A program made the position numbers and the translations under genes. Positions 8,559 to 32,000 of a stretch of DNA of 32,000 nucleotides are shown one piece after another. Origin of the DNA: Bacilli bacterium (GTDB taxonomy: Bacteria > Bacillota_I > Bacilli_A > RF39 > UBA660); assembly GCA_017442305.1 (NCBI GenBank), contig JAFRZY010000006.1, forward strand, positions 95,880 to 127,879, given 5' to 3'. The notes beneath the pieces are model-generated. The model did not search any database. It had not been told where the DNA came from and saw only the letters and a program-made list of their open reading frames with translations. Within the stretch, counting starts at the first letter, position 1, and each line of letters opens with the position of its first letter.

Positions 8559-8586
8559 AAAAAAATAGTTAACATTTGTTAACTAT
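8559..8586 (-). terminator. rho-independent terminator
   Basis: 9-bp stem atagttaac / gttaactat (8565-8573 / 8578-8586), 4-nt loop. A T-run follows on the minus strand. It overlaps the stop codon of the 8583..9899 gene. Confidence 0.65.
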
Positions 8587-9899
8587 TCTATTACAATTTC
8601 ATATGGTGAGTTTGTATCTATTCTTCCGTTACCAGTAAATGTTACATTACCTTTTAAGTTAATAACTGGGCGAACACCTAAAGATTCAAATGCAGCCGAT
8701 GTACTAATTAAAGTACCCCTTAAAAGCCAAGCATTTGCGGTTCCGTCATTACAGCTACTAGGTGAGGAAGTCCAATAACTTTCACCACTATACAAATAAT
8801 GTGTCTCCCAACCATCTATTGCTCCGGCAAACACAATCTCATCTGCAGTTAATAATCCTACCGGATTATTTAATAAACCATTACCTTTCTTTTCGCTTGT
8901 TGTATATCTATCACTTTTGTTTGTACATTTCAATTCAGGACTTTTGACTTCTACTCTCCATGTAGGACCATAGTTTATACCTACTGATACAGCTAGCGCT
9001 GGATTGTCAATTAAATCAAAGTTATAATCATAATAATCATAACTTTGTATTTCACGATCATTACAAAAGATACCATCTGCTATATATTTTTCGTAGTTTT
9101 CTTTTAGATTAGCTTCATACCAGTCATCTACTACACCTTTAATTGTACTATCTGTTTCAACACCATTTACATCATATGTATATCCTACATATTTAGTATC
9201 ATCTGCATCTCCATTATACGCGGTACTCGCAATGGATGCTGTATGTGCTACTCCATTAGCTATCGGACTTGTTCCATCATAAATCATACGAATGGTTCCG
9301 TCGCCATTAATTCTGATGATTCGCCAATACATTGAATCATTATTTGAATTAAAACCAAATTTTACATAATTATTCGTAGACCCTCCTCTAAAATAGTAAG
9401 AAGTTCCTAAATCATCTTCGGCTTTATATAAATTAGTATTTGCCTCATGAGCTGATGTATCAAAATTTGGAGTGGTTTCAACTATGGTACTATTAGCTAT
9501 AATTGCTTTAGCAAGAGCTCCTAGTTCATTAAAATACATTGTGCATTTTTCTTTTCCGTTTAATCCTTCAATTTCTGCTTTGCCATTAACATAATTTATA
9601 GTTGCGCCATTTACACAATAACTCTTTTCCAAATCAAAAACATAACCTTCTGTTGGTATCTCTTCAACATAGTTTACAGTACCATCTTCTTCAACTAGTT
9701 TAACCGCAATAGTTAAATCTCTTTTTTCAAAAAAATCTATATTACCTTTTAAAATGTTATATGAATTGGTAACTTTGTAAGCTGCATATGTTCCGTATAT
9801 GGTTACACCAATTAATAAAAACATTACTACTAGGCCCGCTATAATCAACGGTTTCTTTTTGTTTTCTTTAATTTTATAATTAAATTTTTTTAATCCCAT
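8583..9899 (-). CDS. membrane-anchored surface protein, non-diversified paralog of the DGR target; C-terminal DUF1566/DUF6273-like (CLec-like) module
   Basis: 438 aa. N-terminal TM anchor (LIIAGLVVMFLLIGVTIYGTYAAY). The central block MYWRIIRINGDGTIRMIYDGTSP...YEKYIADGIFCNDREI is about 84% identical (my hand count, about 95 aa) to ORF 31278..31928. C-terminal motif YWTSSP...GVRPVINLK. Confidence 0.7.
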   Translation of the reverse strand: MGLKKFNYKIKENKKKPLIIAGLVVMFLLIGVTIYGTYAAYKVTNSYNILKGNIDFFEKRDLTIAVKLVEEDGTVNYVEEIPTEGYVFDLEKSYCVNGATINYVNGKAEIEGLNGKEKCTMYFNELGALAKAIIANSTIVETTPNFDTSAHEANTNLYKAEDDLGTSYYFRGGSTNNYVKFGFNSNNDSMYWRIIRINGDGTIRMIYDGTSPIANGVAHTASIASTAYNGDADDTKYVGYTYDVNGVETDSTIKGVVDDWYEANLKENYEKYIADGIFCNDREIQSYDYYDYNFDLIDNPALAVSVGINYGPTWRVEVKSPELKCTNKSDRYTTSEKKGNGLLNNPVGLLTADEIVFAGAIDGWETHYLYSGESYWTSSPSSCNDGTANAWLLRGTLISTSAAFESLGVRPVINLKGNVTFTGNGRIDTNSPYEIVIE

Positions 9900-16849: not shown

Positions 16850-18749
<1,900 letters not shown>

Positions 18750-28013: not shown

Positions 28014-28763
28014 TTAAATAATTAAAGATAGTAATATTATTATTACACCTGTAATTATACCACAATATATCTCTTTATGCTTGCGGTTATTATAAATTTC
28101 CGGTAAGAACTCAAAGAAAGCCAGATAAATGATCATTCCTAAAGTTAAACATGAAATAATTCCTAAGAAAAGTTCATTAATATTTCCAAATAATGATACC
28201 AAAAGAGCTCCGAAAAGACTTGATAACGCTAAGGCAGTAATTAAAACTTTATTAAAACCTTTTTTATTGCGTTCTTTCGATAATGATATAGCTATTTCAA
28301 TTCCTAAAGGTATATTGTGAAGCGCTACACCAATACACATAAATAAGCCTAGTTTTATATTGTTAGTAGCTAAGCTATAAATTGCTATTCCTTCTATAAT
28401 ATTATGCAAGAAAAGCGAAATTAATGTAACTATACCAATATGGTAAACATGAGAGTTATGTTCTTCATGAATATCTTCTTCATCTTTATGTTCATGATGA
28501 TGAGCGGGTATGAAACAGTCTAAAACTTTTAGAACACCTAACCCTCCTAAAATTAATAATATAGCAATAAAATATGTACCTTTAAAAATTTCTATAACCT
28601 CTGGAATTAGATCAAATATTATTAAATTTAACATAACCACGAAAGCTAAAGAAATAGCAAAATATGATAACTTATCTTTATTTTTTATTTTACTTGTAAT
28701 AACATATCCTATAACAAAAAACAATCCTGATATTAATGCTAAAAGTAATCCTAATAATTTCAT
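28014..28763 (-). CDS. ZIP family divalent metal transporter
   Basis: His-rich loop HHHEHKDEEDIHEEHNSH. LHNIIEGIAI and ALHNIPLGIEIA motifs of the ZIP/ZupT family. The ATG at 28763 is preferred over the TTG at 28793. Confidence 0.85.
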   Translation of the reverse strand: MKLLGLLLALISGLFFVIGYVITSKIKNKDKLSYFAISLAFVVMLNLIIFDLIPEVIEIFKGTYFIAILLILGGLGVLKVLDCFIPAHHHEHKDEEDIHEEHNSHVYHIGIVTLISLFLHNIIEGIAIYSLATNNIKLGLFMCIGVALHNIPLGIEIAISLSKERNKKGFNKVLITALALSSLFGALLVSLFGNINELFLGIISCLTLGMIIYLAFFEFLPEIYNNRKHKEIYCGIITGVIIILLSLII

Positions 28764-28830: not shown

Positions 28831-29970
28831 TTAATTATAAGTTTCTGTAAGTGATGCTTTAAAACTTTTACTGTCCGCAATATTTAAATACCCGTTATAG
28901 TTTTTTATAATTTCTAAACAATCTTCATTATTCTTATTAGCTTTTTTTAAGCGTTTTTTTATTCTTTTTTTTGTTTTAGCGCTAAGTAAAATATGTAATC
29001 TTTTATTCTTTAACAAAAATTTATACCCTAAAAACGGTAATCCTGATTCTAAATCATATATTTGAGTTTTATTATTAATTTTTAATTTATATTTTTTTAC
29101 TTCCTCTTCAATTGCTACTATACATTTTCTTAAAAAATCTTTATTCGGATCTATTATAACTAAATCATCCATATAACGTATATAATATTTTGCATGCAAC
29201 TTTTCCTTTATAAAATGGTCTAAATCATTCAAATAATATATTGCTAAAATTTGACTAGTCATATTCCCAATGGGCAATCCCTTGCCTTTAACATAATATG
29301 GAATGTTGTTTAACTCAGAAATCTTTAGCTTTTTCTCATTATTGCTAATTTTCATATTCATAACTGCTTTTTTTTGCTTAATTATAGTATTATAAATAAT
29401 ATTATTTACATAATCTTCATCAGTACTTTTAATCATGTTTTTTATTAATGCATATATTTCTTGATCAGCTATTAAACTTTTTAACTTATCAAGTAATATT
29501 TCATGATCAATAGAATAAAAAAACTTTTCTATATCGCATTTTAAAGCATAAATTTTTTGATTTTTATTTTTTAATTTATTAACATATTTTAAAAGATAGT
29601 TTATTGCTTCTTTAGTTCCTTTATTTTTTCTAGTTGCAACATTTGTATTAATAAGCTGAGGTTCAATAAGTGGAAATAATACATATTTACTTATTAGATG
29701 ATTAACAACTTTATCTACCATACATTCGCTCATTATTATACGTTTTTTTGGCTTAGTAATAAGAAAAATATTATATTTACTATGTTTATACGTTCTAGTT
29801 TCCAACAAATTATAAACATTGGTTAAATTACTACTAAAAAATAATTCAAATTTAAATAATTTATCTTTATTCTTTGTGTGTTTTCTTATTAAGAAATACA
29901 TTAGTTTAATTTTATTAATATCAATTAAATCAGTGTAATTAATCTGATTTTTGGTTTCTGAGAATTCCAT
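28831..29970 (-). CDS. DGR reverse transcriptase
   Basis: 379 aa. Motifs are LKCDIEKFFYSIDH (motifs 1-2), LPIGNMTSQILAIYYLNDLDHF (the (I/L/V)GxxxSQ motif 4 characteristic of DGR RTs), YIRYMDDLVII (YMDD at 29164-29175) and PFLGYKF. There are no maturase or endonuclease domains. The start overlaps avd by 32 nt. Confidence 0.9.
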   Translation of the reverse strand: MEFSETKNQINYTDLIDINKIKLMYFLIRKHTKNKDKLFKFELFFSSNLTNVYNLLETRTYKHSKYNIFLITKPKKRIIMSECMVDKVVNHLISKYVLFPLIEPQLINTNVATRKNKGTKEAINYLLKYVNKLKNKNQKIYALKCDIEKFFYSIDHEILLDKLKSLIADQEIYALIKNMIKSTDEDYVNNIIYNTIIKQKKAVMNMKISNNEKKLKISELNNIPYYVKGKGLPIGNMTSQILAIYYLNDLDHFIKEKLHAKYYIRYMDDLVIIDPNKDFLRKCIVAIEEEVKKYKLKINNKTQIYDLESGLPFLGYKFLLKNKRLHILLSAKTKKRIKKRLKKANKNNEDCLEIIKNYNGYLNIADSKSFKASLTETYN

Positions 29971-30292
29971 ACGTTATTTTCCTTATTTCCACAATAAAAT
30001 TACTACTCGATGTATATTGTTTTTTACTTATAATCTTTTTTTCATAACTTACATTCATATAATAATCTAACATTGATAACTTTACTATAATATCTTTCAA
30101 ATATTTTTCCTTAATACGTTGATTAGTATTAATATTGTAAGAAAAAATTAATTCAACTAGAATATATAAATTTTTTTCAATTGAATCAATTAACACTCTT
30201 TCTTTATTCGGAAAATTTATTAGCAAACGATTTATATAAGCAGAAGTTTTTTTTGTATTATTTAAAAGATTAAAATTATAATTCATTGACAT
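29939..30292 (-). CDS. avd: DGR accessory variability determinant (Avd-like four-helix-bundle protein)
   Basis: 117 aa, helical and basic, placed immediately upstream of and overlapping the RT. FPNKERVLIDSIEKNLYILVELI resembles the FPK-E..L..Q...A motif of the Avd / 23S-rRNA-IVS protein family. Confidence 0.7.
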   Translation of the reverse strand: MSMNYNFNLLNNTKKTSAYINRLLINFPNKERVLIDSIEKNLYILVELIFSYNINTNQRIKEKYLKDIIVKLSMLDYYMNVSYEKKIISKKQYTSSSNFIVEIRKITYGILRNQKSD

Positions 30293-30701: not shown

Positions 30702-30717
30702 TTAAAATATAGCAATA

Positions 30718-30744
30718 GTCACATAACTAAAAAAGTTATGTGAC
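30718..30744 (-). ncRNA. perfect 10-bp hairpin in the TR-to-accessory-gene spacer (candidate structural element of the DGR RNA)
   Basis: gtcacataac (30718-30727), loop taaaaaa, gttatgtgac (30735-30744). It lies 17 nt upstream of the MSL ATG. No T-run follows on the minus strand, so it does not look like a terminator. Confidence 0.4.
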
Positions 30745-30902
30745 GTCTATATTTATATATTTAGGTAACTAATACTGCTCATTACCAGGGAATAATCTTG
30801 TTTCCAATCTAAATAGATTACTATATAAATAGTTACTTCCTCTCATTATAAGCCTTAACTTATAACCCTCAGAATTAGTAATTTACTAACATTAGTAGGA
30901 AT

Positions 30903-31018
30903 CTGGGCGCGCACCAGGGTTGTCATTGTTGACGTTGTTGTTGTTGACATTGCCATCGTTATTGACATACCACGCATTCGCATTGTCGTTGTCATCGTTG
31001 AAGTTATACGGAGCGGAA
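30903..31018 (-). repeat. DGR template repeat (TR)
   Basis: 116 nt homologous to 31177-31293. The coding-strand frame reads SAPYNFNDDNDNANAWYVNNDGNVNNNNVNNDNPGARP, with 15 Asn codons (10 AAC + 5 AAT). It is noncoding, since a stop follows 4 codons after the homology. It ends in the GC-rich CCCTGGTGCGCGCCCAG. Confidence 0.9.
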
Positions 31019-31057
31019 AAAAGCACGCTTTTATATAGACTATCCCCAAAATTCATT

Positions 31058-31081
31058 CCCAAAACGAAGAGTCGTTTTGGG
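31058..31081 (-). terminator. hairpin between target gene stop and TR (possible terminator of the target gene)
   Basis: 9-bp stem cccaaaacg / cgttttggg with a 6-nt loop. On the minus strand it is followed by AAUGAAUUUU, a weak U-tract. Confidence 0.4.
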
Positions 31082-31099
31082 AAATTATTTCTTATCTTT

Positions 31100-31345
31100 T
31101 TATTTTACTACAATGGTATATTCTGAACCTATCTGTCCATTTCCTTCAAACTGAACATCAGCTTTCAGATTGATAACTGGGCGCGCACCAGGGAAGTCAT
31201 AGTTGACGCTGTAGTTGCTGACATCGCCATCGTTACCGACAGACCACGCACTCGCATCGCCGTCGCCATCGTAGAAGTTAATGGGGAGCGGAAGTCCAAT
31301 ACATTTCATTGCTATACAGATAATATGTACTGTTGCCTGCCACAT
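31100..31345 (-). CDS. C-terminal, VR-containing fragment of the DGR target (variable) protein, in a different frame from the upstream part
   Basis: The frame encodes ...INFYDGDGDASAWSVGNDGDVSNYSVNYDFPGARPVINLKADVQFEGNGQIGSEYTIVVK*. This is homologous to the C-terminus of the paralog 8583..9899 (GVRPVINLKGNVTFTGNGRIDTNSPYEIVIE*). The annotated Met start is probably not real. Confidence 0.7.
   Translation of the reverse strand: MWQATVHIICIAMKCIGLPLPINFYDGDGDASAWSVGNDGDVSNYSVNYDFPGARPVINLKADVQFEGNGQIGSEYTIVVK
31177..31293 (-). repeat. DGR variable repeat (VR) at the 3-prime end of the target gene
   Basis: 117 nt aligned to TR with an offset of +274. In the core (31194-31273) there are 16 mismatches, all at positions where the TR coding strand has A. 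The shared GC-rich 17-mer at the 3-prime end (31177-31193) is a candidate IMH core. Confidence 0.9.
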
Positions 31346-32000
31346 TATTTCCTCCTGCTAAATATGCTTCATCTGCTGTTAATAAACCAACCGGATTTGA
31401 TAATAACCCATTTCCTAATGATTCACTTGTTGTATATCTATCACTTTTATTTGCGCATGTTAATTCTGGTGCTTTATTATCTCCTAATCTGCCCATTGGG
31501 CCATAATATTCATTTGTATATACTGCAGCATTTGGATCTGTTGTTACTGACCAATCTTCATTTAAATATTCATACTTATATATTTCTCTATCGTTGCAGA
31601 AAATAGAGTCTGCTATATATTTTTCATAATTCTCTTTTAAGTGTTCTTCATACCAATCATCTACTACACTTTTAATTGTACTATCTGTTTCAACACCATT
31701 TACATCATAAGTATATCCTACATATTTTGCTTCGTTATAATCTGTGTTATATGCTGTATTTGCTATTGTTGCTGTATGAGAAACTCCATTTTCTACAGGT
31801 GATGTCCCATCATAAATCATACGAATTGTTCCATCACCATTAATTCTAACAATTCGCCAATACATTGGTGTTCCTGACGCCACTTCAACTTCTTTTGTTG
31901 TCCAATTATTATAATCATATACTGTCAACGTTGTATCTTTCGCATATGTTCCAAATTTGACATAGTTGTTGGTTGGTGCTCCTCTAAAGTAATAACTAAT
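31278..32000 (-). CDS. N-terminal/central part of the DGR target protein (5-prime end lies beyond the window; terminated by TAA inside the VR 5-prime edge)
   Basis: The frame is open to position 32000 (..SYYFRGAPTNNYVKFGTYAKD.. upstream of the ORF-track Met). It is about 84% identical to paralog 8583..9899 across MYWRI..CNDREI. It ends ...EMYWTSAPH*, where the paralog continues YWTSSPSS... Confidence 0.75.
   Translation of the reverse strand: MSYYFRGAPTNNYVKFGTYAKDTTLTVYDYNNWTTKEVEVASGTPMYWRIVRINGDGTIRMIYDGTSPVENGVSHTATIANTAYNTDYNEAKYVGYTYDVNGVETDSTIKSVVDDWYEEHLKENYEKYIADSIFCNDREIYKYEYLNEDWSVTTDPNAAVYTNEYYGPMGRLGDNKAPELTCANKSDRYTTSESLGNGLLSNPVGLLTADEAYLAGGNNVAGNSTYYLYSNEMYWTSAPH

Follow-up and report, generated by a model that had tools for sequence, protein, structure and literature searches.

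A probably genuine and recent target-gene frameshift at the 5' edge of VR in a DGR whose other parts are intact, from an uncultured gut Bacilli bacterium

Introduction

The closest described relatives of the locus reported here are the BPP-1-type DGRs, in which an RT with SQ and YMDD motifs and a bAvd protein accompany a TR rich in AAC and AAT codons, TR/VR differences are confined to adenines, VR and TR end at their 3' sides in an identical GC-rich block, and VR occupies the C-terminal end of a surface-type protein. All of these features recur in the locus that we analyzed, which lies near one end of a 32,000-nucleotide stretch of contig JAFRZY010000006.1 (assembly GCA_017442305.1; the whole stretch is called the window below). 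It departs from the BPP-1 type in several respects: VR is out of frame through a 1-nt insertion that is accompanied by two non-adenine changes at its 5' edge; one more accessory ORF is present, which matches MutS domain I; the gene order, read along the minus strand, is target-VR-TR-accessory-Avd-RT; the host, a gut Bacilli bacterium of 28% GC, is uncultured; and the target comes from a large uncharacterized paralog family whose modeled structure gave no C-type lectin match by Foldseek.

A second point of comparison is provided by the decaying DGRs of the DiGReF survey (PMC3521204), in which, as here, one component is broken while the TR/VR differences are still of the A type only, a pattern that was read there as a sign of very recent inactivation. 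In those cases it was the RT that had been broken, by a nonsense mutation, an IS insertion or a frameshift, whereas here it is the target that is broken, at the 5' boundary of VR, next to an intact RT, Avd and TR. Two further kinds of system resemble the break itself. Slippage by tRNA-Pro on CCC-C and prfB-type +1 sites share with it a zero-frame CCC-C and a stop shortly downstream; the break differs from them in that the stop is outside the A site, a Shine-Dalgarno-like stimulator is absent and the site is unconserved in orthologs. Slipped-strand phase variation of surface-protein families is comparable in that the family is large and membrane-anchored and a reversible off state is conceivable; it differs in that the lesion has no long repeat (C4, T2 and A2 only) and that no mixture of on and off states was seen in the contigs of three runs.

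The DGR and its components

The locus is a DGR with an intact RT, Avd, MutS_I-like ORF and TR (Table 1). The RT matches PF00078 (E = 3.8e-21) and has IGNMTSQ at residue 239 and YMDD at residue 266, the SQ dipeptide being the criterion for DGR-clade RTs given in PMC3521204. Avd scored 40.7 bits against PF22296 (bAvd), for which the cut-off is 40, and is conserved across the orthologous loci. The 141-residue ORF matches MutS domain I (E = 2.5e-5); placed between TR and avd and kept in all orthologous loci, it is a candidate DGR accessory gene.

Over the 103 nt lying 3' of the lesion, TR and VR differ at 16 positions and all 16 are TR adenines; as this stretch contains 37 A and 66 non-A positions, the chance of 16 random sites all falling on A is (37/103)^16, or ~8e-8. 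The 5-nt lesion at the 5' edge of VR is the sole exception to this adenine-only pattern. TR/VR homology ends right after the identical GC-rich block CCTGGTGCGCGCCCAG, and a search downstream of VR identified no significant DNA hairpin (z = -0.42). There is a terminator-like hairpin between the target stop and TR, for which the orthologous locus L008 shows one compensatory C-G to G-C swap; this hairpin may be a terminator, a part of the DGR RNA, or both. The non-coding stretch between TR and the first accessory gene is nearly invariant in three species although their RTs are only 72-75% identical, and probably forms the structured region by which the DGR RNA primes cDNA synthesis; it had no match in Rfam.

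Table 1. Coordinates of the features discussed, as window positions unless another locus is named
Feature	Coordinates	Strand	Basis or remark
DGR target gene, 3' part, upstream frame	31278..32000	-	starts beyond window; ends ...NEMYWTSAPH
Premature TAA stop from frameshift	31278..31280	-	reading frames
Lesion, VR CCATT versus TR GTAT	31280..31284	-	2 non-adenine substitutions + 1 extra base
C4 run, potential +1 slippery CCC-C quadruplet	31283..31286	-	sequence; slipperiness from PMC4519876
9-nt block TTCCGCTCC, 5' homology block	31285..31293	-	VR = TR; also in orthologs
VR, 117 nt	31177..31293	-	TR/VR comparison
VR-encoded and conserved C-terminal coding sequence, now in +1 frame	31100..31279	-	..INFYDGDGD..GARPVINLK..IVVK*; collinear with intact homologs
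GC-rich 16-nt block CCTGGTGCGCGCCCAG, VR 3' end, IMH-like	31177..31192	-	identical to TR 30903-30918
Hairpin, 12 bp + T-run, terminator-like	31056..31083	-	between target stop and TR; conserved in orthologs
TR, 116 nt	30903..31018	-	reads SAPYNFNDDNDNANAWYVNNDGNVNNNNVNNDNPGARP in target frame
Non-coding stretch, ~200 nt, TR to first accessory gene	30702..30902	-	nearly invariant, three species
Accessory ORF, 141 aa	30276..30701	-	MutS domain I match; in all orthologous loci
bAvd accessory protein	29939..30292	-	PF22296
DGR reverse transcriptase, 379 aa, intact	28831..29970	-	IGNMTSQ and YMDD motifs
Intact target paralog, 438 aa	8583..9899	-	without TR-like sequence; collinearity control ..YWTSSPSS..GVRPVINLK..
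Full 572-aa product P0001	L001:2975-4693		L001 locus from other assembly
L008 VR/TR pair	L008:345-475 vs L008:628-745		VR +3 nt, 4 non-adenine + 27 adenine-site differences
P0241	L013:6001-7902 and downstream		first ~300 residues ~identical to window target (single substitution)

A frameshift at the 5' edge of VR

The target ORF enters from beyond position 32000 and stops at the TAA; the VR-encoded C-terminus (..PINFYDGDGDASAWSVGNDGDVSNYSVNYDFPGARPVINLKADVQFEGNGQIGSEYTIVVK*) lies in the +1 frame and is open to a stop at 31102-31100, its tail (..PINFYDGDGDASAWSVGNDGDVSNYSVNYDFPGARPVINLK...IVVK) being the open +1-frame continuation of the upstream frame of the target. VR is therefore +1 relative to the gene body, in contrast to the usual DGR arrangement of a VR in frame in its target ORF; the element is still to be classed as a DGR, with a broken target. 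Our analysis agrees on this point with the initial annotation, which had described a split at the 5' edge of VR, with the upstream frame ending in MYWTSAPH-TAA, the VR tail in the +1 frame, one extra nucleotide together with non-adenine differences, and nine identical nucleotides upstream.

The derived junction of this strain reads CCCCATTAA, and its alignment to TR shows two substitutions (G>C and T>C) and one extra base directly after the 9-nt TTCCGCTCC. Written as codons, VR of this strain is TCC GCT CCC CAT T AAC, where the ancestral sequence is TCC GCT CCG TAT AAC (S-A-P-Y-N), in frame. A single ORF is regained on deleting any one of three bases, a C (giving SAPINF), a T (SAPHNF) or an A (SAPHYF), and each of these mends is collinear with the target family. 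Most parsimoniously, on the alignment, the extra base would be the T (CAT, T, AAC), at a cost of two substitutions and an insertion, as compared to three substitutions and an insertion if the extra base is a C. The earlier claim that removal of one C from the C4 run restores a collinear ORF is thus correct, but the extra base is not assignable to that run and an inserted T is the more parsimonious choice. As a second lesion is visible in neither half of the gene, the lesion looks recent. Gene callers, in other assemblies too, end the target at the TAA at 31280-31278 and so report the 572-residue product P0001.

The ancestral junction in relatives

A search with the mended protein identified 2339 homologs; among the 120 listed, most were 610–700 residues long with 100% query coverage and had ..YWTS(A/T)P..(G/S)(A/V)RPVINLK.. 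unbroken in one frame. At the nucleotide level an in-frame CCG-(T/A)NN junction is found in TR itself, in the orthologous loci L008 and L010, in the allele L013 and in the paralog P0002. L008 and L010 are syntenic DGRs of related species that have their target in one frame, RTs 72-75% identical to the window RT, and the downstream genes Zip, epimerase, patatin and YebC in common with the window. For L010, VR reads TTCCGCTCCG-TAC-AGT and TR TTCCGCTCCG-AAC-AAT, the two differing at 19 positions, all of them adenines. For L008, VR reads TTTCTGCGCCG-TTT-ATT (..GCGCCG-TTT-ATT) and TR ..CCG-TAT-AAT; as the L008 VR is 3 nt longer than its TR, in-frame VR/TR indels do occur in this DGR lineage. In the comparison of 5' VR/TR boundaries in homologous DGRs that had been proposed for this locus, both junctions are in frame with CCG.

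A closer relative of the broken gene is P0241, an intact 633-residue protein that clusters at 90% with the truncated product. It is encoded at L013, where the upstream genes correspond to those found here, 4.8 kb align to L001 at 96.8% identity, and the junction is in frame (CCGTATAAC / TGGCCTTCCGCTCCGTATAACTTC). The C-terminal half of P0241 and the genes downstream of it (YgjP, SpoU, RimM and TrmD) are those of another paralog, of P0004 type, and L013 may be a paralog recombinant or a chimeric assembly. Because its 3' half and downstream genes differ from those of the window, we used L013 for the junction sequence only, where L008 and L010 corroborate it. The paralog P0002, from the same metagenome, reads CCGTAT. 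As TR, the orthologs, the closest allele and the paralog all keep an in-frame CCG, we take CCG-TAT-AAC to be ancestral and CCCCATTAAC to be derived and specific to this strain. Of the three readings that the initial annotation put forward, without choosing among them, that of a genuine inactivating indel is supported, TR, L008, L010, L013 and P0002 all being in frame; its rider that imprecise cDNA integration created the indel is possible but unproven. A genome-collection scan with the RT identified no relative, and exact-pattern scans for the junction flank (metagenome and genome contigs) and for a conserved 25-mer of the spacer (metagenome contigs) identified nothing.

Consequences for the target protein

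The product is cut to 572 residues with the loss of ~60 C-terminal residues, including the whole VR-encoded segment. In an AlphaFold model of the closest full-length paralog, P0002 (mean pLDDT 89), the VR-encoded residues form four consecutive β-strands at 568-610, with block-mean pLDDT of ~95 or higher over most of this range; the 572-residue product is without these strands and without the conserved RPVINLK...PYxIV tail. Judging by this model, it is safe to say that the variable, presumably ligand-binding part would be lost. The target gene would be off, or would yield at best traces of full-length protein through accidental slippage on CCC-C.

The target is a member of a large uncharacterized paralog family of membrane-anchored, surface-type proteins. 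Its fold had no match in Pfam and no sequence match in the PDB, and Foldseek searches of the PDB gave no CLec match with either the full-length P0002 model (pLDDT 89) or a model of the C-terminal domain (pLDDT 77); with all three approaches, Foldseek, Pfam and PDB sequence, lacking a CLec match, the assumption of a C-type-lectin (CLec)-type target was dropped. The best structural relatives were DUF6273-annotated phage proteins in BFVD (probability 0.99-1.0), and one homolog carries PF19789. On the strength of these models, the VR-bearing C-terminal domain may carry DGR variation on another scaffold, or on one that has diverged strongly.

Origin of the lesion

On balance, and with moderate confidence, we favor the reading that the frameshift is genuine at the DNA level and recent, that the DGR is intact apart from this break in its target, and that the frameshift most likely arose by ordinary spontaneous mutation. 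Such mutation would have struck VR at its outermost 5' end, which retrohoming overwrites less often than any other part. A synonymous CCG>CCC (Pro) and a TAT>CAT (His) change would have been followed later by a single-base insertion, which would create an immediate TAA and truncate the protein ahead of the VR-encoded strands. The alternative is that the DGR made the lesion itself, an imprecise 5' retrohoming junction having left a 5-nt scar (GTAT>CCATT) with which the element knocked out its own target; candidate mechanisms for such a scar are template switching, RT slippage and non-templated addition at the cDNA 3' end. We consider this origin possible though rather unlikely, and several observations are consistent with it. 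Three changes in 5 nt resemble one complex event and not independent mutations, for which a retrohoming scar fits about as well. The two substitutions and the insertion form a cluster that is bounded by the 9-nt homology block on one side and by the first A-mutated codon on the other, and other non-A differences are absent across the following 103 nt. A-mutagenesis in the orthologs reaches the same codons (TAT>TTT in L008, AAC>TAC in L010), so that cDNA tracts would normally end at the position of the lesion, and the L008 VR itself has a +3-nt indel and four non-A changes relative to its own TR. Template switching has been proposed for 5' integration and cryptic 5' sites have been documented (PMC3240598), and template slippage by bRT and indels have been discussed (PMC12875486).

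Against a scar, this particular sequence is predicted by no mechanism; CCC and CAT look like viable ordinary substitutions that possibly predate the insertion, with His found at this position in the paralogs P0006, P0029 and P0050; and ordinary mutations at the 5' edge would survive resetting anyway. A search for a donor of the CCCCATTAAC patch, as expected from gene conversion or template switching, yielded just the site itself in the window and the fetched loci. Of the two origins, we slightly favor ordinary mutation over a complex event at the retrohoming junction.

Whichever way the lesion arose, the tract homologous to TR includes it and extends 9 perfectly matching bp further upstream, so a later retrohoming event with its 5' junction in TTCCGCTCC could restore the frame. 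In BPP-1, 5' integration of the cDNA is possible once TR and VR share at least 8 identical bp (PMC3240598), and a reconstituted DGR has been found to repair a reporter with an 18-nt deletion and stop codons (PMC12875486). By analogy with these systems, restoration of the frame by a future homing event could occur here as well. The fuller proposal, in which imprecise integration of the cDNA at its 5' side left the CCATT patch as a scar, the patch can later be rewritten through the 9 bp, and the two together form a DGR-driven reversible off/on switch, is if anything more doubtful than the scar itself. A single VR sequence was found at full depth in three runs from three samples, with no sign of current activity in these contigs, which drop rare variants. 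The same runs contain, at the same depth, a second VR-like sequence of the L013/P0004 type with an intact junction; as this has eight non-adenine differences from the window TR, the window VR (VR1) is the only perfectly matching target seen so far.

Translational bypass

A different way of reconciling the frameshift with a working gene is that tRNA-Pro slips +1 on CCC-C, after which the ribosome reads AUU AAC ... and makes full-length ..SAPINFYDG.. (junction SAPINFYDGDGDASAW), the site acting as a recoding or attenuation device. The quadruplet does permit identical +1 re-pairing in the P site (31286-31283), there is a stop two codons after CCC, the gene halves are otherwise undamaged, and the DGR is fully intact although its sole perfectly matching VR is broken, which would suit either bypass or a reversible shift. 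In E. coli, +1 frameshifting on CCC-C reaches up to ~1% where the position is most prone to shifting (PMC4519876). Even so, we regard a programmed bypass as quite improbable: CCC is followed in the A site by CAU, an ordinary codon that is neither a stop nor rare, with the stop one codon further; the 20 nt upstream contain no Shine-Dalgarno-like stimulator; the site is absent in the orthologs L008 and L010, the allele L013 and the paralog P0002, whereas programmed sites are conserved; and the Ile-containing slip product is not the most parsimonious ancestral protein. As trmD sits on L013, the contig of the closest allele, suppression of slippage by m1G37 is expected. Accidental low-level slippage on CCC-C is possible, and the +1 slip that had been put forward as a third explanation of the split (next codon CAU, stimulator absent, site unconserved) is left as a possibility only at the level of such noise.

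Is the extra base real?

A sequencing or assembly artefact could in principle have added the extra base to a gene that is truly intact, and short homopolymers (C4, TT and AA) do overlap the lesion. All of the population data come from a single gut-metagenome study and were inspected as assembled Logan contigs, which drop rare variants; within that scope, a 302-nt unitig identical to window positions 31151-31452 was found in three runs from three samples (one of the runs, SRR12529394, is the source of contig L003). Its depths of 6.6, 17.3 and 7 compare with 5.6, 16.4 and 6.3 for the TR/RT contig in the same runs, and as the unitig depth equals that of flanking single-copy DNA the frameshifted allele would make up about the whole sampled population (~100%). 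No indel variant or alternative allele at the lesion was found among the Logan contigs of the three runs. Four contigs of other assemblies (L001-L004) were retrieved through exact matching of the RT protein. Two of them, L001 and L002, span target, VR and TR without a difference from the window in that part; a single SNP, at 28471, sets each of the four apart from the window, which is thus a consensus in its own right. A search for RNA-seq runs gave none.

The same sequence is thus present at full depth in three runs and samples and in two assemblies from different pipelines, and the change from the ancestral to the derived sequence includes two substitutions, unlike a run-length error. Homopolymers of 2-4 bases are not known as error hot spots of short reads. 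We consider an artefact highly improbable, and the homopolymer or assembly error first suggested for this site is not borne out: the sequence is identical in the three runs and in L001 and L002, the change relative to the ancestral CCGTAT is not one of plain run length, and a C3 allele, which would have implied an assembly error, was seen in none of the contigs.

Least likely of all, to the point of being negligible, is a functional two-ORF state, with the 81-residue ORF at 31345-31100 having an ATG of its own for translation and providing the variable C-terminal piece separately: there is an AGGAGG 5 nt upstream of the ATG at 31345, but this (31345-31356, minus strand) encodes the family-conserved A-G-G and is thus probably incidental, the first 21 residues of the ORF are out-of-frame junk, the strands encoded by VR form part of a larger domain, an ATG is missing at this place in L013, and no two-ORF arrangement was found in relatives, with L008, L010 and L013 carrying the target as one frame. 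Judged by these sequences, the split is not the native architecture.

Other features of the surface-protein family and the window

We observed a G8 tract between a TTGACA -35 and a TATACT/TATTAT -10 element at three places (L001:2926-2933, L005:5955-5962 and L014:2957-2964), in genomes of ~28% GC. The tracts lie upstream of the DGR target (in this case ~1 kb beyond the window end), of the paralog P0002 and, in another species, of a further member of the family; the window paralog at 8583-9899 is without such a tract. By their sequence, these tracts look like phase-variable promoters of the surface-protein family. A frameshift also interrupts another family member, P0032, which lies on a 238-kb contig from a related organism, and does so at a G7 run (L014:4692-4698) following ..SPAFFAGG; this break falls at about the same place as the start of VR, with the conserved ..RPVINLRADVEF.. 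tail in another frame, and it could be either real phase variation or an assembly error. Elsewhere in the window, the plus-strand ORF at 16878-17402 encodes a collagen-like protein with ~30 G-P-T / G-x-T triplets, the DNA of which is visible as a 9-nt periodic repeat at 16971-17286.

Discussion

For annotation, the immediate consequence of this arrangement is that gene callers give a 572-residue hypothetical protein and miss the VR-encoded tail, and that DGR finders requiring VR to lie inside an ORF would lose or mis-assign this target. For the biology of these elements, the locus is a clean natural case of an intact DGR in which the break has hit the one VR that matches perfectly, where the homing tract has its 5' boundary. 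To our knowledge, 5' integration is the least understood part of retrohoming, and this case offers a test of whether 5' integration is error-prone and of whether an element can repair a frameshifted target. If ordinary mutation produced the lesion, the gene would be a routine recent pseudogene in a large, probably redundant surface-protein family. If the scar should prove true, the locus would be a natural record of DGR retrohoming introducing non-adenine changes and a frameshift at the 5' junction, and later rewriting of that junction by the same element could give a reversible off/on switch layered on hypervariation.
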